From assembly GCF_036570325.1 (NCBI RefSeq), contig NZ_DATCYK010000028.1:11526-75525 (forward strand): DNA of 64,000 nt. Direction: 5' to 3'. The position numbers and the translations under genes were made by a program. Every line of letters begins with the position of its first letter. The stretch's first letter is position 1. A model generated the notes under the pieces. It did not search any database. It saw only the letters and a program-made list of their open reading frames with translations, and was not told the origin of the DNA. This document shows, piece by piece, positions 11,446 through 55,732 of the stretch. The stretch comes from Prevotella sp. (GTDB lineage: Bacteria; Bacteroidota; Bacteroidia; Bacteroidales; Bacteroidaceae).

Positions 11446-11542
11446 CGCTTTTCGGTAGGCCCGGCGCCGCTTCCATGCCCCGCCCATCGGCCACCGAAGC
11501 CCTTAACCCCATCTATTCTACACATTAGAAGCGATAAAAACC

Positions 11543-43568: not shown

Positions 43569-43645
43569 GTCGGACGGGTCAGACTAGTCCGACCGGTCCG
43601 ACCAGTCCGAGCTCCATGAGCGGCAATGCCGCTCCTTATCCCCCT
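43569..43645. repeat. Family A array plus hairpin between menB and menC
   Basis: gtcggacgggtcagactagtccgaccggtccgaccagtccga; gagcggc-aat-gccgctc. Confidence 0.85.
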
Positions 43646-43673
43646 TTTATTACCAATAATCTCCTCTCTTCCT

Positions 43674-45719
43674 ATGCTTAAAATAACCATTACCGACCGC
43701 ACGCTTCACTTCAAACAGCCGGCCGGAACGTCGAGGGGCGTGTATCTCACACGCCACAGTTACTACCTTACACTGACCGACTCGGAGCGGCCGGGACTGA
43801 CGGGTGTGGGCGAATGTGCGCCCTTGCCCCGGCTCTCGTGTGACGATTTGCCCGATTACAGTCGGATTTTGAGAGAAATGTGTGACCTCGTGGAGCAGTC
43901 GGGCGCTATCCCCTATGAGCGGTTGCGGCCTTATCCGAGCATGCTGTTTGGCTTGGAAACGGCGTTCGCGCAGCTCGAGGCGCAGGGTAGCACCGCCTTG
44001 TTCGACACCCCCTTTGGCCGTGGTGAGGAGGGCATTCCTATCAACGGACTGGTATGGATGGGCACGTTCGACGAGATGATGGGGCGCTTGGAGGCGAAGC
44101 TCGAGGAGGGATTTCGCTGCGTGAAGCTCAAGATTGGCGCCATCGACTTCGACCGTGAGCTGGCGCTTATACGCCACATACGCCGGCGTTTCACGAAAGA
44201 GGAGGTGGAATTGCGGGTCGACGCCAACGGCGGATTCACCCCTCAAGAGGCCATGGGGCGCTTGGAGGCGCTGTCACGTTTTGACATCCATTCCATCGAA
44301 CAGCCCATACGCCAACGCCAATGGGCTGACATGGCCCGTCTGTGCGCCCATTCGCCGCTGCCCATCGCCCTCGACGAGGAGCTGATAGGGGTCAACTCTA
44401 AGGAGGAAAAAGAGCGGTTGCTCGACACGATACGGCCTCAATACATCATCCTTAAACCGAGTTTGCACGGGGGTATGAGGGGTTCGGAGGAATGGATAAG
44501 GCTGGCCCGCCGGCGAGGCATAGGCAGTTGGATAACCTCGGCCTTGGAAAGCAACGTGGGACTGAACGCCATCGCCCATTTCTGCGCTAAGGTATATGGT
44601 CCTGCCATCACCATGGCGCAGGGCTTGGGAACGGGCCAACTCTTCACCGATAATATCGAAATGCCTTTGGAAATCAAGGGAGACAAACTGTGGGCCGGGG
44701 CCACGCTGGCCTCGTTCATGAGCGAGTGGCGGGACAGTAGTCCCACGGTGACAGTGCGCACGAGTGGCAGCACGGGGCAGCCCAAGGCCATGCGGGTGGA
44801 GAAAAGGCGCATGCTGGCGTCGGCCCGCATCACGTGTGACTTCCTCGGACTGCGGCCCGGATGCACGGCCTTGCTCTGTATGAAGCTCGACTATATAGCG
44901 GGCAAGATGATGGTGGTGCGCGGTTTGGAGCGGGGCATGCGGCTCATCAGCGTGCCACCCGACGGCCATCCCTTGGCCGCGTTGGGCGAGGGGCAGGCTC
45001 CCGACTTCGCGGCGATGGTGCCGTTGCAGGTATATAATTCGTTAAAAGTGGAGAAAGAGCGCCGTTTGCTCGGCCAAATCGGCCATCTCATCATCGGCGG
45101 TGGCGCCATTGACGACGACTTGGAACGGCGGCTGAAGCGCCTTCCCAACGCCGTATGGAGCAGTTATGGCATGACCGAGACGCTGTCGCACATTGCCCTG
45201 CGCCGTGTTTCGGGCCCGCAAAGCAGCTCGTGGTACACGCCGTTCGACAGTGTCAGCGTGGCGCTGAATGAGGAAGGATGTCTCGTTATCCATGCTCCCG
45301 AGGTGTGCGACGGCCTCCTCGTGACCAACGACCGGGCCGAGCTGCGGACCACCGATGGACCCGACGGGCGGCCGTTGACACAATTCAGGATTCTCGGAAG
45401 AAAGGATAATGTGATAGATTCGGGGGGAATAAAAATACAAATAGAGGAAGTGGAGCAAGCGCTGCGGCCCTTCCTGCGCCATCCTTTCATGATAACCAAG
45501 CGCCCCGACGCTAAATTTGGCGAGGCCATAGTGCTGCTGACCGAGCATAGCGACATGGCGGAGGTGAGCGAGATATGTATGAACTGCTTGCCCAAATATT
45601 GGGTGCCACGCCATTATGTGCACGTGGAGCGTCTGCCCCTCACCCCTACCGGCAAGCCCGCAAGGAAGGAAGCGGAGCGGTTGGCGGAAGAATCGGTCGG
45701 ACTAGTCGGACTGGTCTGA
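43674..45719 (+). CDS. menC-menE: Fused o-succinylbenzoate synthase / OSB-CoA ligase (MenC-MenE)
   Basis: enolase-family KLKIG, RVDANG, IALDEELI, ILKPS, then ANL ligase TSGSTG, YGMTET, GRKDNVIDSGG, TGKP; one continuous frame; start moved to MLKITI. Confidence 0.9.
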   Translation: MLKITITDRTLHFKQPAGTSRGVYLTRHSYYLTLTDSERPGLTGVGECAPLPRLSCDDLPDYSRILREMCDLVEQSGAIPYERLRPYPSMLFGLETAFAQLEAQGSTALFDTPFGRGEEGIPINGLVWMGTFDEMMGRLEAKLEEGFRCVKLKIGAIDFDRELALIRHIRRRFTKEEVELRVDANGGFTPQEAMGRLEALSRFDIHSIEQPIRQRQWADMARLCAHSPLPIALDEELIGVNSKEEKERLLDTIRPQYIILKPSLHGGMRGSEEWIRLARRRGIGSWITSALESNVGLNAIAHFCAKVYGPAITMAQGLGTGQLFTDNIEMPLEIKGDKLWAGATLASFMSEWRDSSPTVTVRTSGSTGQPKAMRVEKRRMLASARITCDFLGLRPGCTALLCMKLDYIAGKMMVVRGLERGMRLISVPPDGHPLAALGEGQAPDFAAMVPLQVYNSLKVEKERRLLGQIGHLIIGGGAIDDDLERRLKRLPNAVWSSYGMTETLSHIALRRVSGPQSSSWYTPFDSVSVALNEEGCLVIHAPEVCDGLLVTNDRAELRTTDGPDGRPLTQFRILGRKDNVIDSGGIKIQIEEVEQALRPFLRHPFMITKRPDAKFGEAIVLLTEHSDMAEVSEICMNCLPKYWVPRHYVHVERLPLTPTGKPARKEAERLAEESVGLVGLV

Positions 45720-45739
45720 CCGGTCAGACTAGTCCGACA
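45695..45739. repeat. Family A array overlapping the menE 3' end
   Basis: tcggtcggactagtcggactggtctga encodes SVGLVGLV-stop. Confidence 0.9.
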
Positions 45740-45755
45740 AAGCTGTGGAAGGCCT

Positions 45756-46505
45756 TTAGGCCTCAATCACACTCACCGTCATGGTGATGTCGTTAAGCGG
45801 CCGGTCGTCGGGCGAAGTGGCGCACTGCTGTATGCGCTCCACGACGTCGAGGCCCTCGATCACCTCACCGAACACGGTGTATTGGTTGTCGAGGAAGGGC
45901 GTGCCGCCCATGGTGGTGTAGGCATGGGTCTGCTCCGGCGTGAAAGCGGGCCGCCCCATGGCCTTACATTCGGCCTTGGTGTCGGCGATGATTTGGTCCT
46001 GCAAGGCCTGCAAACCGGCCCGGTCGCGCTTGCGGCGCAGGTCCATGATGGCGTCATGGTGGAGCCGTGCCAGCTTGTCGAACACTTGTTGCTCCTGCTG
46101 CATGGCCATTTGGCGCTCCATCTGCTTGAGTTCGGCAGGTTTGTAGGTTTTTCCCCACACGATGTAAAACTGGCTGCCGCTGCTCTCCCGCTGCGGGTTG
46201 ACTTCGTCGCCAAGGCGGGCCGCGCTCAGCGCACCACGCTTATGGAAGCGTTGGGGATAAGCAAACTCGGCCGGAAGCGTGTAGTCGGGGCCGCCCGTTC
46301 CGAGCCGTTTGCCCTTGGGAGCGCCCTTGCTGTCGGGGTCGCCACCCTGAATCATGAAGTCCTTGATGACCCGATGGAAAAGCGTTCCATCGAAATAGCC
46401 CTCCCGGGCCAGCTTAATGAAGTTGTCACGGTGGGCGGGCGTCTCGTCGTAAAGGCTGACGAGGATGTCGCCTTCGGTAGTGCTGATTTTGATGTTTGTA
46501 GGCAT
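45756..46505 (-). CDS. Cyclophilin-type peptidyl-prolyl isomerase with helical insertion
   Basis: LFHRVIKDFMIQGGD, SSGSQFYIV, LDNQYTVFGEV; start moved to MPTNIK. Confidence 0.92.
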   Translation of the reverse strand: MPTNIKISTTEGDILVSLYDETPAHRDNFIKLAREGYFDGTLFHRVIKDFMIQGGDPDSKGAPKGKRLGTGGPDYTLPAEFAYPQRFHKRGALSAARLGDEVNPQRESSGSQFYIVWGKTYKPAELKQMERQMAMQQEQQVFDKLARLHHDAIMDLRRKRDRAGLQALQDQIIADTKAECKAMGRPAFTPEQTHAYTTMGGTPFLDNQYTVFGEVIEGLDVVERIQQCATSPDDRPLNDITMTVSVIEA

Positions 46506-46536
46506 AAAAAAGTCTTTAATCGTGTTGTGGCCCGGC

Positions 46537-46620
46537 GGGAGCTGCTCTCTTATGAAATGAAAGTAGGCCTTTCGCCGCATGGGAGCTGCCCTTTTATGAA
46601 ATGGGAGCTGTCCTTTTATC
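46537..46620. repeat. Three gggagctg..ttat copies at 44- and 22-bp spacing
   Basis: starts at 46537, 46581, 46603. Confidence 0.75.
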
Positions 46621-46756
46621 GGGCGGAGTATTTCCTTATATTTATAAGGAGCGGCCGTCGGGACGTTGTAATGCTTCGCAAATTTAGGAAGATTATCGGA
46701 TTGTGACAAAATAATAATCATCTTTTTTGAGTATTGCAGATGATTTCCGAGGATTG

Positions 46757-46800
46757 TAATTTTGCATAAAAAATCGGAAACATGTGGAATTATGCAAAAT
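46757..46800 (+). promoter_or_regulatory. Promoter box TAATTTTG overlapped by a perfect 11-bp inverted repeat (candidate operator)
   Basis: attttgcataa 46759-46769, 20-bp spacer, ttatgcaaaat 46790-46800. Confidence 0.65.
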
Positions 46801-46960
46801 CAAGAACAATCTTGAAGTGTGGAAATCCTGCGGCGTAGGCTTCGTCTACCTGCCTTGTAGAACGGTTATTTAAAGCGAAAGACAGTACATTGGCTCATCA
46901 TAGGAATGAGGATGGCCTGCGTTCTATAGTTGTATATTAACTCAAAAATTATTGTAAACA

Positions 46961-49303
46961 ATGAAAATCAATTGCAGATATTTCATCGCAATGCTCCTTG
47001 TTTTTATTCTTTCCCTCGCCCCCTGCCTTGCCCAGAGCGGTCAGGAGCGCGTGATTAAGGTGACCGTGGTGGAGAAAGGCACGCTCGAACCCGTGGTGGG
47101 CGCCGTGGTGAGAGAGGGAAAGAAGATGTACGTTACCGACGGCTCGGGCTGTTGCTCGGTGCGATGTGACGCCTCGGGACGGGTGGTGCTCTCGGTGAGG
47201 TCGCTCGAATACGAGGAGATTATTGCCCATCCTTATGTGGTGAAAGACGGCTCGGGGCTGACCATTTACCTCCGTCGGTCGGTTAAAATGCTCGGTACGG
47301 TCAACGTGGAGGCCCAAAGGAAACAGACCTCCGTGCTGCAACAAGTGGCCAAAATCGACGCCAAGACGCTCGAGAAAAGCTCCGCCCTGTCGTTGGCGCA
47401 GCTCTTGGAGAAGGTGCCCGGCGTGAGTAGTATCAGTTCGGGCAACGCTGTGGCCAAGCCGGTGATACAAGGTATGCACAGCAGTCGCATTCTCTTGGTC
47501 AACAACGGCGTACGATTAGAGAGTCAGAACTGGGGCATTGACCACGCGCCCGAGATAGATCATACGGCCTCAAGCATAGTGGAGGTGATCAAAGGGGCCG
47601 AATCCATACGCTATGGTTACGGCGCCGTGGGTGGCGTTGTGCTGCTCGATCAGGCTCCGTTGCCCTTTGGCGCCGAGCGGTTGAAGGTGAAGGGCGTGGC
47701 CAACGTGGGCTACTCCACCAACAGCAACGCCTATGACGGGGCGGCGACGATGGATTTCGGTTATAAGAAAACGGGTCTCCGCCTGCACGGCATGTACCAA
47801 CGGGCCGGCGATTACCGCACCGCCGAATACCGACTTAACAACACCGGATACAAGAACATCAGCCTCTCGGCCCTCTTGGGCTATCGCACCAACCGCCTCA
47901 CGGCCAAGCTCTTTGCCTCGTTGTACTACTCGAGGAGCGGCGTGTATTACGGCAGCAACGTGTCGGACATGGACCAACTCTTGGCCCGCTTCATGCGGGG
48001 AAGGCCCGAGGAGAATACCATCCGCCCCTTCAGTTACCACATAGAGCCGCCTTTCCAGCAGTCGCAGCACGTCACGATGAAGGCCGACGCCACGTGGGAC
48101 GTGGCCCAAAGGCACAGCCTTATCTTCAGTCTTTCGTTTCAAGAGAACCTTCGGCAGGAGTTCGAGAATCGTAAAATAAAGCGTTTCAGTTGGATTCCCG
48201 TGCAGGATTTGCGGCTCAAGACCTTCAACGGCGAGGCGATATGGAATGCCAATTGGACGCCCTCCATGGTGTCGCAGTTAGGCGTTTCGGGCATGTACCA
48301 GACCAATTTCAACGTCCCCGGCACCAAACAGCCGGCCTTCATTCCCAACTTCGCCGCCCTCACCACGGGCTTCTTCCTGCTCCATAAGATGACCTTCGGG
48401 CGGCTGATGTGCTCCGCCGGCATGCGCTACGACATGCGGGGGCTCGACGTGAACGGCTATACCAGCCTATCGAGTTTCCAATATTACGACGATTTTAAGG
48501 TGTATAGCAACTTCACCGGCAGCCTCGCGGCCCACTATCAGTTCAACGATAACCTCGACGCACGCCTCAACATAGGCTGGGCTTGGCGCCCGCCCGACAT
48601 CAATGAGCTTTACGCCGGCGGCCTGCACAACGGCACTTACTGGGTCGTGGGCAATCGGGAGCTGACCAGCGAGCGAGGTTACAAGGCCGTGATGGGCGCC
48701 CGTTATCGTACGACATGGTTCTCCATAGAGCCCGGCATGTTCTTTCAAAACATCACGAACTACATTTATGACTGCATAGGCAGTGGCAACGACCGCTTCC
48801 ATAACCACCCCAGCGGCAAGTATCCTAAGTTTGTTTACGGGCAGGACAACGCCCGCTTCATCGGTGGCGACGTGGTGGCGACGGTGCGACCGATAGAGAG
48901 TTTGACGTTGAGTGCCAAGGGCGAGTGGATCAGCGCCCGCAACTTGTCGCAAAAGGCGTGGATGCCTTTCATGCCGTCGGACAGGTATGAGTTGGCCGCC
49001 GATTACCAAACGACGATTGGAAAGAGATGGCACGCCGGATTGGTGGTCGAAGGTCGATATGTAACCAAGCAGACACGCTTCGACCCGGTGAAAGACTTGG
49101 TGCCCGACACGCCGCCCGCCTACTTCCTCCTCGGTGGCTCGGCGGAGGCCTCAACAGAGCTTCCGGGTGGCACGAAGCTCAAGTTCGTCCTCGTGGGCGA
49201 CAACGTCCTGAACCGTCTTTACAAGGAATATACCGACCGCTTCAGGTACTATGCCCATGAGCGGGGCGCCAAATTCACCCTGAGAACCATCGTAACGTTT
49301 TGA
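46961..49303 (+). CDS. TonB-dependent receptor (non-SusC type)
   Basis: signal peptide, N-terminal carboxypeptidase-like domain, plug (PVIQGMHSSRILLVNNGV, EVIKGAESIRYG), barrel ending in Phe. Confidence 0.92.
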   Translation: MKINCRYFIAMLLVFILSLAPCLAQSGQERVIKVTVVEKGTLEPVVGAVVREGKKMYVTDGSGCCSVRCDASGRVVLSVRSLEYEEIIAHPYVVKDGSGLTIYLRRSVKMLGTVNVEAQRKQTSVLQQVAKIDAKTLEKSSALSLAQLLEKVPGVSSISSGNAVAKPVIQGMHSSRILLVNNGVRLESQNWGIDHAPEIDHTASSIVEVIKGAESIRYGYGAVGGVVLLDQAPLPFGAERLKVKGVANVGYSTNSNAYDGAATMDFGYKKTGLRLHGMYQRAGDYRTAEYRLNNTGYKNISLSALLGYRTNRLTAKLFASLYYSRSGVYYGSNVSDMDQLLARFMRGRPEENTIRPFSYHIEPPFQQSQHVTMKADATWDVAQRHSLIFSLSFQENLRQEFENRKIKRFSWIPVQDLRLKTFNGEAIWNANWTPSMVSQLGVSGMYQTNFNVPGTKQPAFIPNFAALTTGFFLLHKMTFGRLMCSAGMRYDMRGLDVNGYTSLSSFQYYDDFKVYSNFTGSLAAHYQFNDNLDARLNIGWAWRPPDINELYAGGLHNGTYWVVGNRELTSERGYKAVMGARYRTTWFSIEPGMFFQNITNYIYDCIGSGNDRFHNHPSGKYPKFVYGQDNARFIGGDVVATVRPIESLTLSAKGEWISARNLSQKAWMPFMPSDRYELAADYQTTIGKRWHAGLVVEGRYVTKQTRFDPVKDLVPDTPPAYFLLGGSAEASTELPGGTKLKFVLVGDNVLNRLYKEYTDRFRYYAHERGAKFTLRTIVTF

Positions 49304-49314
49304 TGAAAGAGTTT

Positions 49315-49695
49315 TTTAGTTGACGAGTAAACAAGTTGACGAGTTGACAAGTTGTTAGTTTTAAGTTGATAAGTTGATGGTTGAAGTTGACGAGCTACGA
49401 GTTAATGAGTAAACAAGTTGATGGAAACTATCTCTTGAATGCAATTTTATAGTTTATGAAAATACGATTTAATGATTTTAAAAGCAGCCTTATTACCTCT
49501 TAATAGTGGCTTAATCGCCGCTTAAAAGCGGCCTAATGGCGAGGTAAAAGGGCTGTAATCACTAATAACTTGTTCACTCGTTAACTTGTCAACTCGTCAA
49601 CTAAAACCTCGTTTACTCGTCCACTAAGCCATCAACTTGTCAACTCATTAACTTGTATCTCGTCAACTAAAACCTCCCAACTCGTCAACTAAAAT
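49315..49695. repeat. Composite element: inverted family C arrays around an 11-bp-period core
   Basis: gttgacgagtaaacaag... (49318-49425) versus ...cttgtcaactcgtcaac (49570-49692); core aaaagcagcct/tattacctctt/aatagtggctt/aatcgccgctt/aaaagcggcct. Confidence 0.85.
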
Positions 49696-49712
49696 AACAA
49701 ATGCACTTGAAT

Positions 49713-50996
49713 ATGAAACATTTTAGCACAATACCGGCCCTCTTGATGGGCCTGACGATACTGCTGAGCGGCTGTTCGGCCGAGAGCATGGAGAAACTTT
49801 TGTCGCCCATGGTGGTAGCTCCGCCGGCCACGATAGAGCGCGACGTGAAGGGACATGACCAGATTTACGCCATCCAAGTGGTGCTGCGCATGGCCCGACA
49901 GCGGCCCGACAACCAAACGTATTCGGCCTACGGGCTCAGCAATTTCGTGACGCCGCCCCTGCCATTGTTCCAACAAATCGACCTCAGTAAGGACGATGCG
50001 GGCAACGTAACCATCACGTCCGAGCGCAAAGCCTTTGACGTGGTGAAGGGAAAGAACGTCTGCTACGGGCTGGAATTGAGATACTTCGATATCAACGGCA
50101 AGCTCATCAACCACCAGTTCTCACGCTACGACCCCGAGGATTTGGAGAGTTCTACCCTCCTCCATCACCAACATTTCTTCACGTTGCAGAATTATTCGCT
50201 CACCGGCGAGCAGCTTACCTACCCCATGAGCCTCGATAGCACCTACTACGATCGCTACCTTTTCAAGACCGACGACGAGGGGCGACGCCTTAAGAGTACC
50301 GTGGCCTCGCCTAAAAACGTGTACGTGGAGGTGGGAAAAGAGGTGGATAACGACCTGCCTTACAACGCTTCCTTGGCCCGAAAGGCCGTGGAGGTGAGCA
50401 TGACCCGGCAGGCCACGGCCCCCTACCGCGACCCTTCCACGGGCAAGGAGTACGAGCTTTACAAGGCCATCGACCAAACGGCGCTCAACGCCATGGTAAA
50501 AGAAATATTCACCTATGACTACCGCGACACCGACCCCGTGGAGCTTGAGCTGGGCCAAGCGGTGAAAGGCAACGACGACATGGGCCGCTCACGGCTGGGC
50601 GAACCCGTGAAACTGTTGCAGCGCCATCGTGACCTCATGACCGCCAAGAACTACGATAGGCTAGGCTTCAAGGGCATGCTGCGCTTCCACAAGAGCAATG
50701 TGGCCTTCCAAATGCGTATCTGTATTTCGCACATGATAGGCTCCAAGGAGAAATATCTCACCGCTAACGGCATTGAGGGGCTCAACGGTCACGACGAGAT
50801 ACAGCCCTCGTGGAACACGTTTGACATAGATTACCCCATTGCTTTCCGTGTGATAGCCGACGCTGATGAGGCCGATAAGGAGAAGTTTGGCGCCGATGTG
50901 CGCCGCTACTACCCCGAGGCTGCCACGGAAACGCTGGTGCGTATGTTTGCCACCGACGGCGATTACTATCGCCTTATTCCCCAAATAACGATGTAA
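49713..50996 (+). CDS. Uncharacterised lipoprotein A
   Basis: lipobox LSGC; LLHHQHFFT motif; start may be 49701 or 49713. Confidence 0.85.
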   Translation: MKHFSTIPALLMGLTILLSGCSAESMEKLLSPMVVAPPATIERDVKGHDQIYAIQVVLRMARQRPDNQTYSAYGLSNFVTPPLPLFQQIDLSKDDAGNVTITSERKAFDVVKGKNVCYGLELRYFDINGKLINHQFSRYDPEDLESSTLLHHQHFFTLQNYSLTGEQLTYPMSLDSTYYDRYLFKTDDEGRRLKSTVASPKNVYVEVGKEVDNDLPYNASLARKAVEVSMTRQATAPYRDPSTGKEYELYKAIDQTALNAMVKEIFTYDYRDTDPVELELGQAVKGNDDMGRSRLGEPVKLLQRHRDLMTAKNYDRLGFKGMLRFHKSNVAFQMRICISHMIGSKEKYLTANGIEGLNGHDEIQPSWNTFDIDYPIAFRVIADADEADKEKFGADVRRYYPEAATETLVRMFATDGDYYRLIPQITM

Positions 50997-51009
50997 AAAA
51001 CTGATTATC

Positions 51010-52368
51010 ATGATGAAAACGATAACATTCTCGCTCCGCCTATCGGCCTTGGCGCTGGTGGCCATGAGCCTTACGGCGTGCGACCAATTCGTGTTCGGTG
51101 GCGTGACCATCGACGAGGAGAACAATCCCATCACCCAAAAGAAGGTGCCACTATCGGGCGCCGAGATTTATTATGGCACCGAGGCGGGCCAAAAACCCGT
51201 GCCCACGACCACCGACAAGGCCATTCCCAACCCCGACGCCGGGGGCGCCTTTGCCGATTGGTACACCTGCTTGGTGATGTTGAAGGAGGGCCATCCCCAC
51301 GGCGGAGGCATGATGCACGGCAATTATGTCTACACAAAGGCGCCGTGGAAGCAGGAACAATTCGCCCAAATACATAACTATAAAAGTGGCATAGAGGTGG
51401 AAATGGACCGCCAAAGCGTCAGCACGATGATAGAACAGCAGCGTGGCAAGCAGGGCCCCGAGTATTTCCGGGTCATCGGAGGGCCCGCCAAGCTGTGGGG
51501 ACTGTGCCTTTATTTCTACGACAAGAATGGCAAGTTGATGAACGACAGCATACTCTCGCGCTCCGACGAGTACCAGTTGTTCTTCTCCATCAGCGACGTC
51601 GACGCCGCGAATCGCCCCTACGAGGTGCGCGACGTGCGCTATCGGGGCGGCAGCGAGGTGCCCAAGGGCGAGGTAAAACCTATCGAGGGCGTGGCCGCCG
51701 AGAGCTTCGTGGGCAAGAAAGACTTTGAGTCGCGCCGCCTCATGACGCCCCAACTGTTTACCTACACCTATCGTGACACGTGGCATTACGACGACATGAA
51801 CGACGGCGTGCGTGAGCTGTTCAACATCAAGCTCCTGCCTCCGCTCACGCCCCGGCAGCATTTCGACGCCCGCAATCCCGAGGACCAAGACTGCGTGGGG
51901 CTGAAAGGTCACTTCAAGTTCGACTATCCTTCGGACGGGTTAGACGAGCGCCCGTGGCCCATCGAGCTAAGCAAGAAGAGCTTTCGCCGCCAATATTTCC
52001 GCCCCACCTACCTGCTGCCACAGTTTTACTTGGCTGTGAGGGTGATGAAATGCCGCAAGGGCAAGAAGGCTCTCAACGCCATTCCCGAGGGTATCCGTGC
52101 GCTAAGTCTCGCCTGCTGTGCCCCGTTCTACGCGCCCAACGCGGAGTCCGAATGGCAGGAAATCATCCGTTTCAACCTGCCCATCAAGGTATATGCCAGC
52201 ATGTTCGACAGCGACCCGACCAACGTCGACAGCCATGAGCCTTACTACTTTAACCTCGGCCGGGAGATAGGACTTACCCCCGAGGAGGCCCTCGACGCCG
52301 CTAACAACCAAATCATCCACTCCGGCGACGGCTCCGGCGGGCTGGGTTACGGCGCTTGGTTCTTGTAA
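51010..52368 (+). CDS. Uncharacterised lipoprotein B, distant paralogue of A
   Basis: lipobox LTAC; EGHPHGGGMMHG; shares GL.L.++D.NGKL+N, Q.FF, FTY.YRDT and G.KG..F blocks with A. Confidence 0.85.
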   Translation: MMKTITFSLRLSALALVAMSLTACDQFVFGGVTIDEENNPITQKKVPLSGAEIYYGTEAGQKPVPTTTDKAIPNPDAGGAFADWYTCLVMLKEGHPHGGGMMHGNYVYTKAPWKQEQFAQIHNYKSGIEVEMDRQSVSTMIEQQRGKQGPEYFRVIGGPAKLWGLCLYFYDKNGKLMNDSILSRSDEYQLFFSISDVDAANRPYEVRDVRYRGGSEVPKGEVKPIEGVAAESFVGKKDFESRRLMTPQLFTYTYRDTWHYDDMNDGVRELFNIKLLPPLTPRQHFDARNPEDQDCVGLKGHFKFDYPSDGLDERPWPIELSKKSFRRQYFRPTYLLPQFYLAVRVMKCRKGKKALNAIPEGIRALSLACCAPFYAPNAESEWQEIIRFNLPIKVYASMFDSDPTNVDSHEPYYFNLGREIGLTPEEALDAANNQIIHSGDGSGGLGYGAWFL

Positions 52369-52379
52369 GCCCATCGGCC

Positions 52380-52720
52380 TTAGTCAATAGGCTATGGCCT
52401 ATGGTCAACCTTCGTGGCAACCCGTGACTGACGGTGCGGAATGGCATGTCCCCGTCCCGGCGTTCCCAAAGGGTGGCTATGACGCCGCGGAAGGCCCGTT
52501 TCGACATGGCCAAAGCATGGCTTTTACGCTTCAAAAGAGCCGCTTCGGCCATGCTCATAGGCCGCTTATCGGACGGCAGGGAAGCCGTGGACCATTGCTA
52601 AGGCATGGGCTTGCGTCGTCGGGCCACATTATTTCATATACTCAGACTGTGCCAGTCTCGGCTGAACGGTCAGCCCCGTCCTTGGCGGGCTGTGCTATTT
52701 CATATATTCAGACAGTAGTT
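52380..52720. repeat. 11-bp-period intergenic tract with a 66-bp-spaced duplication
   Basis: caaagcatggc/ttttacgcttc/aaaagagccgc/ttcggccatgc; atttcatata(c/t)tcagac(t/a)gt at 52631 and 52697. Confidence 0.65.
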
Positions 52721-52738
52721 ATTTAAAATAAAAATCGA

Positions 52739-53800
52739 ATGAAAAGTTTTTTAAAAAGTAAATTACCCATGGCCCTGATGGCCCTTTGTAGTCTTTCAGC
52801 TTGTAACAACGGCGGTCCCGACCCCGTCATTCCCGATTCCGAAAAGGTAGTCGACCACCTTATTTTTAAGGAAATCTGCTACACCGGAACGTTGCATGCA
52901 ACGAAGAATTATTCCTATCCTTACGACTCCTACATCAAGATTATGAATCCCACAGCGGATAAAACGTTCTATCTCGATGGGCTGTGCCTCGTGCAGACGG
53001 GGTTGAGTTGCAGCAAGATAGTTGAGCTGAAGGAAAAGAATAACTTTATTTCCACCCACTTTGGAGCCTCCCGTTTGGTGCAATTCCCGGGCAGCGGACA
53101 GCAGTACCCCATCAAACCCGGCGAGGAAATCATCATCACCGGCTACGCCATCGACCACACCAAGGAAACCGAGGAGATGTGGAATCCCGCCTCGTACGAC
53201 CTTAGCGGCGCTAAATTTGAGTGGTATTCACCGGAGCAAATCAAAGAAGAGGAAATCTTTGAGGATAACGCTGACGTACCCAACATGAAGACCTTGTTTC
53301 CCGAAGACGGCAATGACATCGTTTTCACAATGATTCCCGAGGAAGGCGCTTTGGCCCTCGTGAAACTTCCCGACGGCGTTACGATGGATAAACTGTTGAA
53401 AGAGGACGAGTACAAATGGGTCACCACGTGGACTGAATTCAAGAAAGAAGGCAACGGACAAGGCTCGGGTCACAGTCACAATAACGAGAGCGACCCCGTA
53501 GAAATGCTCAAAATTCCCAACGCATGGGTCGTTGACGCCGTGCAGATATGCCCCCAACAAGATTATAAATGGAGCGTTGTGGGTCCCGAGCTCGACCGTG
53601 GTTACAAGAGCGTTCTTACCTCATCGCGCGATAAACGCACCAATCCACAAGCCTTGGCCGGCAAGTCTTTGGTACGTCGATGGGACGGAAAGAAGTACGT
53701 AGACGGCAATAATTCTTCGCAAGATTTCGAGGTTCGCGACGCCTCTTTGTCCGCTAAAGGCAAGTCACAGCCTGTCCCCGGCGCCTCGGCAGCACAGTAA
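52739..53800 (+). CDS. DUF4876-like lipoprotein
   Basis: lipobox LSAC; IFKEICYTGT, DSYIKIMNP, IPNAWVVDAV, NNSSQDF; GHSH loop. Confidence 0.75.
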   Translation: MKSFLKSKLPMALMALCSLSACNNGGPDPVIPDSEKVVDHLIFKEICYTGTLHATKNYSYPYDSYIKIMNPTADKTFYLDGLCLVQTGLSCSKIVELKEKNNFISTHFGASRLVQFPGSGQQYPIKPGEEIIITGYAIDHTKETEEMWNPASYDLSGAKFEWYSPEQIKEEEIFEDNADVPNMKTLFPEDGNDIVFTMIPEEGALALVKLPDGVTMDKLLKEDEYKWVTTWTEFKKEGNGQGSGHSHNNESDPVEMLKIPNAWVVDAVQICPQQDYKWSVVGPELDRGYKSVLTSSRDKRTNPQALAGKSLVRRWDGKKYVDGNNSSQDFEVRDASLSAKGKSQPVPGASAAQ

Positions 53801-53940
53801 CGGGCGTAGGGAGAGGGGACTGTAACCGTTCATCCCACCTTTGGTTCCCTTTTAAAACAGTAGGTATTTCTTTCCTGAACGCCTTTGGTTCCCTTTCCCG
53901 TTGCCCCTTATTCTGCTGCCCCACAGTAGCGGATAAAGCA

Positions 53941-53978
53941 AAGGAGATGGCCCTTCGTAGGGTCATCTCCTTATTTTA
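53941..53978. terminator. Bidirectional terminator between convergent operons
   Basis: aaggagatggccc-ttcgta-gggtcatctcctt. Confidence 0.8.
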
Positions 53979-54094
53979 TGATTTCTATTTTGAGGCGATA
54001 ATTTTTTGATAGGCTCTCTTTGTTTTCTTCGTTTATCGCCGATGGTTAGGTTGTTTTCTATTGATTTGGGGTGCGTTTGGAGCGGTTTGTCGTT

Positions 54095-55732
54095 TTATTT
54101 CAGGAAATCGGGATGGCGATAGCTGATACCGCAGTCGCCGAGTTGCTTTAAATGCCACGGCAGGCGGTCAACGTACGAGCCCCAATTGGCCTGCCGGCTC
54201 CATGTAAGTTCGGTGAAAGCTTGGAGCGAAGGGAAGAGATGTTGGCCCAATTTGGTCTCGTTTGGAATCATCTCCGTCCACACACAAGCCTGATAACCCT
54301 TGATGTTTTGGCGCAGAATGCCCTTGAATTGGGGTTGGAAAGTGAAGTTGTAGAGTTCCTTGAGCAGCTCGTCGGTGGGATCGGCGCTAAGGTAGAAGTG
54401 ACCCCATTCCATGAAAATAACGGGCAATCCGCGCTGGGTCATCTCGCCAACTTGGTCGGCTTTCCAGTCTCTCCAGAAGGTATAGAGCAGCGGTTGCGGG
54501 TCTTTCTCGTGGAAAGCGTCGTCCCATGCCATGGGCTGTTTGCCTTTGCCGCGTAGGAAGTCGGCCATTTCCTTGACGAAATAGTTTTGCAGTCCGTCTA
54601 TGTCGGTTAAGTTTTTATCGCGTATAAGGGCCTGACAGTCGGGACAATTGCGCCACGCCGTCTTCTCCACTTCGTCGGCTCCGATGTGGAAGTAATGGCT
54701 TGGGAAGAGGTCGGCTACCTCGGATAAGATGTCTTTCAGGAAGCCGTAGTTCTGTGTTTTGCCCGCGCATACGGGGTCGGAGAACTCCTCGCCCCATCCC
54801 GTTCCGCCATTGCAGGACAGTTGGGGAAAGGCTTTGATGGCGGCGGAGAAGTGGCCCGGCATGTCGATTTCGGGGATAACGTCGAGTCCTCGCTGCGTGG
54901 CGTAGTCGATAAAGTCCTTGAGTTGGGCCTGCGTATAGTAGCCTCCGTACTCCTTGCCATTCCTTACGAAGCGCTCGTCGATGGCAAACGAGGGGTCGGT
55001 GGCTGCCTTTTGCATGCACTCCCGGTCGTATTTGTCAAACGTGCGCCATGCTCCTTGCGTGGTCAGGGCAGGGTATTTCTTTATCTCTATGCGCCATCCC
55101 TGATCGTCGGTAAGGTGAAGTTGCAGCTTATTGAGCTTGTAAAACGACAGTTGGTCGACCAGTTTCTTGAGGTAATCCATGGTAAACATGTGGCGGGCCA
55201 CGTCGATATGAAAGCCTCGCCACGCCGTTTTGGGCTTGTCGGCGATGGTGATTTGGGGCAGCGTCAGCCCACGGTCATCGGCCTTGCCTTGGAGAATAAT
55301 CTGGCGTAAGGTCTGCACCGCCCACAGCATACCTTGCGAGGAAGCGCACGTAAGGGTAATATCCTTCTCGCCGATGGCCAACTTGTATTCCTCCTCCGTG
55401 AGCGATTGGTCCTTTGTGATGCGGATGGTGGCTTGGTCGTTGGCCCCGGAGGTGAGGCTGGTACCGGTCATCATGCGGCCCAACGACTGCTTGAGCAGGT
55501 CGGCACAGATAGGCGTAAGGTCGGCCGAGAGCACGATTTTCTTGGGCAGGACCATATCGGTGGCGCCATACTCCATGGCCACGGGTTGGGGGATAATGGC
55601 CACATGGGCGGCGTAAGCAGGCGTTGTTTCACGGCCATCGTTATCGTCGCAGGCATACATAATGGAGAGTTGCAGCGTGGCCAAGACCGTTAGCAGCAGG
55701 CCTCGGCAAAGGTTTTTATGGATAGTTTTCAT
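54095..55732 (-). CDS. GH20 beta-N-acetylhexosaminidase lipoprotein
   Basis: lipobox MYAC then acidic DDND; HIDVARHMF, LHLTDDQGWR, PEIDMPGH, HIGADE. Confidence 0.92.
   Translation of the reverse strand: MKTIHKNLCRGLLLTVLATLQLSIMYACDDNDGRETTPAYAAHVAIIPQPVAMEYGATDMVLPKKIVLSADLTPICADLLKQSLGRMMTGTSLTSGANDQATIRITKDQSLTEEEYKLAIGEKDITLTCASSQGMLWAVQTLRQIILQGKADDRGLTLPQITIADKPKTAWRGFHIDVARHMFTMDYLKKLVDQLSFYKLNKLQLHLTDDQGWRIEIKKYPALTTQGAWRTFDKYDRECMQKAATDPSFAIDERFVRNGKEYGGYYTQAQLKDFIDYATQRGLDVIPEIDMPGHFSAAIKAFPQLSCNGGTGWGEEFSDPVCAGKTQNYGFLKDILSEVADLFPSHYFHIGADEVEKTAWRNCPDCQALIRDKNLTDIDGLQNYFVKEMADFLRGKGKQPMAWDDAFHEKDPQPLLYTFWRDWKADQVGEMTQRGLPVIFMEWGHFYLSADPTDELLKELYNFTFQPQFKGILRQNIKGYQACVWTEMIPNETKLGQHLFPSLQAFTELTWSRQANWGSYVDRLPWHLKQLGDCGISYRHPDFLK

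Follow-up and report, generated by a model that had tools for sequence, protein, structure and literature searches.

The subject of this report is a four-gene outer-membrane uptake operon on the forward strand of a 64,000-nucleotide stretch of Prevotella sp. DNA (the window; positions 11,526 to 75,525 of contig NZ_DATCYK010000028.1, RefSeq assembly GCF_036570325.1). Its genes encode, in order, a TonB-dependent receptor, two lipoproteins designated here A and B, and a lipoprotein of the DUF4876 family; the four are referred to below as the cassette (Table 1). By sequence comparison, A and B are members of a previously undescribed superfamily of receptor-linked lipoproteins, which occurs in single, tandem-fused or duplicated forms. 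The cassette as a whole is probably an iron-starvation-regulated outer-membrane uptake machine for iron or haem. An earlier reading of the same DNA, made from its letters alone (the original prediction), had described a TonB uptake system that was not yet characterised and a binding-protein family that was new; that description has stood, in that no relative of A or B was found in Pfam, NCBIfam or the PDB, with binding remaining a predicted property.

All four open reading frames (ORFs) of the original prediction were recovered at the same coordinates, with one promoter upstream and one terminator downstream. Lipoboxes were confirmed in the three proposed lipoproteins, all encoded on one strand (LSGC in A, LTAC in B and LSAC in the DUF4876 protein). 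The gene-neighbourhood survey that had been suggested was performed with 82 loci, 80 of which were obtained with a profile of A in named genomes and two of which were from P. cangingivalis. It is apparent that the order receptor–A–B–DUF4876, on one strand, is present in every locus with enough contig to display it (71), the remaining 11 being truncated by contig ends. The DUF4876 gene shares the strand and operon of the receptor gene and is never adjacent to it, since A and B lie between them in all 71 complete loci. Flanking genes are not conserved; clusters of them are found at seven or fewer of the 82 loci and represent unrelated genes. The carriers belong to Prevotella, Hoylesella, Segatella, Alloprevotella and Porphyromonas, along with Bacteroides heparinolyticus and Bacteroides pyogenes. 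Most are oral or mucosal species of Prevotella and Porphyromonas, many of which are pigmented. The distribution is patchy: the cassette was observed in 3 genomes of an order-wide sample of 401 and in 9 of a family-wide sample of 301, the latter including 6 of the 16 from the window's genus.

The genes of the orthologous loci are separated by gaps with medians of 9, 15 and 49 bp, none of them as long as 300 bp. The two long spacers of the window, of 397 and 370 bp, are found where those medians are 9 and 49 bp and are therefore regarded as local insertions. The former is a composite of inverted short-repeat arrays, with look-alikes on 17 contigs of the same genome, and its insertion inside the operon could affect co-transcription. 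The latter is G+C-rich and carries a near-repeated segment of approximately 17 nt, ATTTCATATAYTCAGAC, as well as an unsupported ORF of 110 aa (52394–52726).

The original prediction had noted that A and B share motif blocks, and several comparisons agree. BLASTP aligned the two proteins in two colinear segments (E values of 3e-4 and 2e-3), and hhalign gave a probability of 95.9% with an E value of 5.5e-9. A hidden Markov model (HMM) constructed from third-party short-form relatives matched A at 5e-52 and B at 5e-32, together with two further genes of the same genome. Judged from these alignments, A and B are true distant paralogues of one superfamily. Neither has a match in Pfam or NCBIfam, and a search of 1.84 billion representative proteins with a profile of A returned only 106 proteins, among them short (about 290–390 aa) and tandem (about 515–600 aa) lipoproteins. 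The motifs of these relatives are (R/K)xGHxHG, HQHFF, YxYRDT(D/N)P and G(L/F)KG(Y/F)F, and Pfam found no domain in any of the ten remote relatives that were submitted to it. The marks of the superfamily are a lipobox, YxYRDT, G(L/F)KG and a block of the form Y/W..L.Y/F.D..G..IN, all of which are present in A and B.

The genomic position of the superfamily is also characteristic, in that members are encoded downstream of a non-SusC receptor of approximately 700–780 aa. Such is the case in the cassette, on contig C139 of the same genome and on two metagenome contigs (L126 and L127), which display the order receptor–member(–member). On C139 (L125:6383-12875, minus strand) the genes are fldA, DUF2023, an ORF of 141 aa, a receptor gene (705 aa), a member of 332 aa and a tandem member of 540 aa. 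The entire row is on one strand, downstream of operator sites of the kind described below, and its two members are the additional genes that were matched by the HMM. A search for homologues of the C139 lipoprotein gave 12 matches, none of them named, so that a link to a P. intermedia locus tag was not obtained.

The key His residues of the two lipoproteins proved to be invariant rather than variable. Among 31 sequences of A, the invariant positions include H48, H152, Q153 and H340, in addition to E42 and YRDTDP. Among 28 sequences of B they include K92-E93-G94-H95, H97, H103, Y188-Q189, YRDTW and L298-K299-G300; H301, which completes the LKGH block, is near-invariant (at least 90%). When the superfamily is aligned, three His features are seen in the short forms: GHxHG, HQH and a later His. 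A has kept the H, Q and H of the second motif in 31, 31 and 26 of its 31 sequences, and the later His in all 31, with no His at the GHxHG position. B has kept GHxH in 28 of 28, while Y-Q-I replaces HQH and Lys replaces the later His. As read from the alignment, this is a post-duplication split of a putative ancestral multi-His site, of which A has retained the half comprising HQH and H340, and B the GHxH half.

These features bear on the function of A and B. The two might be metalloenzymes, at the surface or in the periplasm, that act on a non-metal nutrient ahead of its import, and to have so many invariant polar residues (His, Asp, Glu, Arg, Lys and Tyr) is indeed enzyme-like. The loss of one half of the ancestral His set from A and of the other from B is a better fit to binding than to catalysis, and no catalytic family was matched by sequence or by fold. 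The claim that the locus lacks SusD and enzymes holds at the level of Pfam and NCBIfam, at which A and B are unannotated.

Confident AlphaFold models were obtained from the family alignments, with a predicted local distance difference test (pLDDT) score of 85.5 and a predicted template modelling (pTM) score of 0.83 for A, and values of 83.6 and 0.83 for B. Foldseek comparison of the models with the PDB yielded no match with an E value below 0.05, and the template modelling (TM) scores among the top-ranked matches were 0.17 or less; profile searches of PDB sequences with the two family alignments returned nothing. In A, the lipid cysteine is followed by Ser and then by acidic residues, as in the surface-export signal of the Bacteroidota. 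Throughout the B family, the lipid cysteine is directly followed by an invariant C-x-x-F-(V/I/T)-F (Phe invariant at +3 and +5), usually succeeded by Gly. Members of that family also end in a near-invariant glycine-rich C-terminus terminating in WFL, which is of low confidence in the model.

The receptor contains plug and barrel domains and scores far below the cut-off of every NCBIfam model. It was correctly described as non-SusC, given that the SusC/RagA model is absent from its 13 NCBIfam matches; SusD-family Pfam domains are likewise absent from A, B and the DUF4876 protein. The best match is to the TonB-hemin family (TIGR01785, haem/haemoglobin), at 144.1 bits against a cut-off of 316.85 and spanning residues 111–759; the haemoglobin/transferrin/lactoferrin family is the next-best full-length match, at 118 bits. 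The ZnuD model, NF038289, was matched at 84.9 bits against a cut-off of 950, by residues 107–291 in the N-terminal part only. Among solved structures the order is different, the nearest receptor being ZnuD (6.7e-16), followed by the copper transporter OprC and then by haem receptors.

The receptor has many conserved His residues. H195, which lies within the invariant plug motif DHAPE (DHAPEID in the window, 47540–47560), is present in 100% of 75 orthologues, and H556 in 32%. They align with ZnuD chain residues 114 and 513, which, with an assumed constant offset of 14 that fits both positions, correspond to the zinc ligands H100 and H499. The published ligand set of ZnuD is D90(99)/H100/E340/H499. 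E340 could not be aligned with the cassette receptor. In haem receptors such as ShuA, the H195 and H556 positions are occupied by the His residues that ligate haem. Because the ligand positions of ZnuD coincide with those for haem, the receptor alone does not separate a metal ion from haem as the cargo.

Two alternatives to the import of iron as such are pertinent here. In the first, A and B would be surface metal binders engaged in zinc (or Ni, Co or Cu) piracy, and would supply a ZnuD-like receptor when metal is limiting or calprotectin imposes stress. The structural ranking of ZnuD and OprC and the alignment with H100 and H499 are in its favour, as is the resemblance of the HxH-type clusters and invariant Glu and Asp residues of A and B to cation sites more than to haem pockets. 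It is disfavoured by the poor and partial fit to the ZnuD model and by the low conservation of the H499 equivalent among orthologues. In the second, A and B would be a new haemophore pair that replaces HmuY. That the two best full-length receptor matches are to haem-type families, that the plug His is invariant and that the carriers are mostly oral or mucosal species are consistent with this. However, the receptor falls far below the cut-offs of those families, and the loop His, between the FRAP- and NPNL-like boxes, is kept in only 32% of orthologues. Moreover, the abundance of invariant charged residues in A and B, and an ancestral site with up to five His residues, would be unusual for a haem pocket, and the models are unlike any solved structure, solved haemophores included. 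Neither HmuY (PF14064) nor the CobN-like HmuS (PF02514) was found in the genome, which is 92% complete. The usual Bacteroidales hmu haem-uptake operon may thus be absent, although its absence is unproven because of that degree of completeness; the result leaves room for a role in haem uptake and is proof of nothing. Overall, the haemophore alternative is regarded as possible but somewhat doubtful.

With respect to ancestry, the receptor of the cassette and the fldA-linked receptor of C139 share 36% identity over 655 aa. The cassette receptor's similarity to the DUF4876-partnered receptor encoded on contig C58 is only marginal (E value of 2e-7, 25% identity, N-terminal part only). The ancestral unit would for that reason appear to be this receptor clade with a His-motif lipoprotein, to which DUF4876 was added.

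The chief new evidence comes from the promoter. A palindrome with the consensus AATACCTA-N4-TAGGTATT was found upstream of the cassette in many genomes, just before the -7 box. The window copy ends exactly 21 nt before that box and is centred near -43. At least 11 of the 16 consensus positions were matched in 45 of 74 cassette upstream regions, versus 17% of shuffles. In the genome from which the window derives, a matrix based on the cassette sites gave scores of 14 bits or more at 28 sites. The window site was also recognized, at 18.2 bits, by a matrix built from the fldA sites, which is only semi-independent, those sites having been found with the first matrix. With a threshold of 12 bits, this second matrix detected sites in 23 of the 74 cassette upstream regions, as compared with 0.6% of shuffles and 8 of 355 other upstream regions of the same loci. 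The 21-nt spacing to the -7 box was observed in 11 of 18 site–gene pairings examined, including those of the cassette, fldA, TetR-ABC-MMPL and eight other promoters of this genome. A generic -33 element was considered as the source of the right arm of the palindrome and was ruled out:.GTATTG is present at that register in only 12 of 3056 occurrences of TAnnTTTG. For the same reason, the palindrome is taken to be a specific regulon mark near -43. A riboswitch in the leader was also considered and rejected, as an Rfam scan of 45700–54200 gave only a chance ALIL match inside gene B.

The genes situated beside the sites in the same genome were named by means of Pfam. Intergenic sites precede five receptor genes (including the receptor–DUF4876–DUF6850 row on C58), two outer-membrane barrel genes, a TetR-ABC-ABC-MMPL row and an enolase gene (upstream of fldA). 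fldA itself is preceded by two half-symmetric sites, and among 14 congeners the site is present at fldA-DUF2023 in 13, often twice, 27 bp apart. Further sites were observed at the frdC/gidA intergenic region and at genes for Nramp, a carboxyl methyltransferase and a POT transporter. The putative regulon comprises approximately 12–15 promoters, on contigs C14, C7, C84, C55, C56, C136, C18, C95, C4 and C88. The genome holds two Fur-family genes (C56:732383 and C131:9967). Nothing usable on the palindrome, or on a Fur box of the Bacteroidales, emerged from a literature search.

Homologues of several of these genes respond to iron. In P. intermedia, iron depletion was reported to raise expression of fldA-DUF2023 159-fold and that of TetR-ABC-ABC-MMPL operons about 130-fold, to induce several receptor loci and to lower frd 9-fold (PMC10434189). 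In P. gingivalis, the DUF4876/receptor locus PG1019-22 was up 214-fold and PG1175-81 13- to 136-fold, and in B. thetaiotaomicron BT3625-33 was up 38- to 128-fold; that study reports no motif (PMC10434189). Because the gene set of the palindrome overlaps the homologues of these iron-responsive genes, the palindrome is itself presumed to be iron-responsive.

The choice of metal in the original prediction, namely Zn, Ni or Co, is probably wrong. Iron or haem is the better guess, since the operator in the promoter is shared with fldA, TetR-ABC-MMPL, frd and DUF4876 receptor loci, homologues of which are responsive to iron in relatives (PMC10434189). No Zur-type evidence, zinc-regulon neighbour or other regulatory support for the proposed metals was found, the sole conserved upstream site being that shared with fldA and with homologues of other iron-responsive genes, and the literature search gave no Bacteroidales zinc system with lipoproteins of such a kind. 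Zinc piracy is consequently viewed as unlikely. In our estimate of the cargo, iron ions or loosely bound iron come first, as a tentative choice, and haem or a haem protein second; something else is third and improbable, and another metal, for example zinc, is last and more improbable still.

Several points weigh against an iron-regulated uptake machine. To the partial independence of the fldA matrix must be added the score of the window site with the symmetric matrix, 12.2 bits, a range that is reached by approximately 38 sites in the genome. The iron link of the cassette, and of A and B, is drawn by analogy, from the shared operator and from the homology of regulon members to genes of other species. 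The second haem/zinc ligand position, H556, which is in the loop between the FRAP- and NPNL-like boxes, is poorly conserved, and B is without the typical surface-export signal. No linked PepSY, ABC, regulator or inner-membrane transporter gene was found in the flanks of the 82 loci, so that an inner-membrane partner is lacking there. Finally, strong sites also occur beside genes with no obvious connection to iron (enolase, outer-membrane barrels, POT transporter, S13 peptidase). Those that precede barrels, SusC-like receptors, the POT peptide transporter and the peptidase would suit the metalloenzyme alternative discussed above, in which the palindrome would define a general envelope or outer-membrane regulon. 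Against that alternative, the site set includes fldA-DUF2023, TetR-ABC-MMPL, frd and Nramp, with fldA retaining its site in nearly all congeners, and it is considered quite improbable.

In the preferred reading, that of iron-starvation-regulated uptake of iron or haem, the palindrome would bind an iron-responsive regulator, acting either as a repressor over the -33 element or as a class-II-type activator, and scarcity of iron would switch the operon on. A, with its acidic export signal, and the DUF4876 lid would be located at the cell surface. A and B would take cargo at their His/Asp sites and hand it over to the receptor, where the invariant Asp-His of the plug (D194-H195) would accept it. 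TonB would then drive import to the periplasm, and the inner-membrane step would be encoded elsewhere. A more far-reaching proposal is offered tentatively, as one that is somewhat doubtful in its entirety. Together with relatives of the single-domain and tandem forms, A and B might represent a new metal- or haem-binding fold dedicated to one clade of TonB receptors. The split-site paralogues would be obliged to co-operate, for example as a heterodimeric capture device, and the palindrome at approximately -43 might be a so far undefined iron-responsive site of Prevotella- and Porphyromonas-type Bacteroidales.

The last gene of the cassette had been described as DUF4876-like, and its product indeed matched PF16215 at 105.6 bits (cut-off 27.9) and PDB entry 4q1z at 1e-11. 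A His cluster had been proposed for each of the three lipoproteins. The motifs of A and B are conserved, whereas the GHSH of the DUF4876 protein (53468–53479) is not: across 67 sequences, H245 is kept in 54% and H247 in 28%. For the DUF4876 family, a surface-exposed homologue has been described in B. fragilis, and the proteins are predicted to cap receptors (bioRxiv 10.1101/2023.03.17.533168). The DUF4876 protein of the cassette is 28% identical to that encoded on C58. The C58 row (L093:3645-9462) consists of genes for a receptor (940 aa), a DUF4876 protein (419 aa) and a DUF6850 protein (544 aa), with a 20.2-bit palindrome 21 nt from the -7 box, and is the PG1019-22/BT1939-type locus of this genome. 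PG1019/PG1020 was termed an uncharacterised transport system in 2026 (PMC13096392).

Coordinates of the features are collected in Table 1. For gene A, a start at 49713 is likelier than one at 49701. Upstream of the cassette, a single ORF of 697 aa (43626–45719) combines o-succinylbenzoate synthase (a MenC-type enolase-superfamily domain) with OSB-CoA ligase (MenE, AMP-binding), and appears to be a menC-menE fusion.

Table 1. Features of the cassette and its flanks, in window coordinates
Feature	Position	Strand	Remarks
Putative 20-bp operator	46716-46735		Diverged copy, AATCATCT-TTTT-TGAGTATT; overlaps the -33 element
Bacteroidota -7 promoter box, TAATTTTG	46757-46764	+	Followed by a leader of ~190 nt to the receptor start
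TonB-dependent receptor, non-SusC, 780 aa	46961-49303	+	Signal peptide, N-terminal extension, plug, barrel
Inserted repeat element, receptor gene to gene A	49304-49700		Absent from the ancestral cassette
Lipoprotein A, 427 aa	49713-50996	+	His-motif lipoprotein superfamily
A motif KGH	49848-49862	+	
A motif HHQH	50163-50174	+	
A motif YRDTDP	50520-50537	+	
A motif GFKG	50664-50675	+	
Lipoprotein B, 452 aa	51010-52368	+	Paralogue of A
B motif GHPHGGGMMHG	51289-51321	+	
B motif YQLFF	51571-51585	+	
B motif YRDTW	51769-51783	+	
B motif GLKGH	51898-51912	+	
Unique spacer, 370 bp, gene B to DUF4876 gene	52369-52738		
DUF4876 lipoprotein, 353 aa	52739-53800	+	PF16215; putative lid
Intrinsic terminator	53941-53972	+	14-bp stem, then T-run

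The acquisition of iron and haem decides the persistence of oral and gut Bacteroidales in inflamed tissue, and for most of the iron-induced receptor loci of the order no cargo has yet been assigned. Only host-associated species of Prevotella, Porphyromonas and Bacteroides carry the cassette, which contributes an entire family of receptor partners absent from Pfam, NCBIfam and the PDB. It also lends itself to a clear test, which would involve two proteins, one promoter element and a small number of invariant His residues. Should the palindrome prove to be an iron operator, iron regulons would become readable from sequence across the order.

Among known systems, the cassette is most usefully compared with the DUF4876-lid/TonB pairs (BT1938/BT1939, BT3632/BT3633 and PG1019/PG1020; Price et al. 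2023), in which a DUF4876 lipoprotein and a non-SusC receptor are likewise encoded in one operon. The loci of these pairs rank with the genes that iron depletion induces most (PMC10434189) and have yet to be given a function (PMC13096392); the lid is predicted by AlphaFold-Multimer to be seated on the receptor's external side (bioRxiv 10.1101/2023.03.17.533168). The cassette differs from them in that its receptor is of another clade (780 aa, as against about 940 aa for the BT1939/BT3633/PG1020 type), in the two lipoproteins of an unrelated and undescribed family that separate the DUF4876 gene from that of the receptor, and in having no DUF6850 barrel, ABC, PepSY or peptidase module.

ZnuD (TdfJ) of Neisseria is the closest solved structure by sequence, and its ligands H100 and H499 are aligned with the plug Asp-His of the cassette receptor and, in the window's protein, with the loop His. 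However, ZnuD acts without lipoprotein partners and is Zur-controlled, whereas the site of the cassette is of the fldA type, and the ZnuD model is matched at 85 bits against 950. The HmuY-HmuR system of the Bacteroidales resembles the proposed role of the cassette: under iron or haem starvation, a surface lipoprotein supplies a TonB receptor of the haem type. It is different in that A, B and the DUF4876 protein have no PF14064 domain, that the models of A and B show no similarity to the HmuY fold, and that the cassette is without hmuSTUV and encodes three lipoproteins as opposed to one. SusCD utilisomes, BtuB-BtuG and XusA-XusB share with the architecture proposed here a single barrel with surface lipoproteins that bind the cargo and cap the barrel. 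In the cassette, by contrast, the barrel is non-SusC, domains of the SusD, BtuG and DUF4374 types are missing, and the lipoproteins constitute a new partner family.

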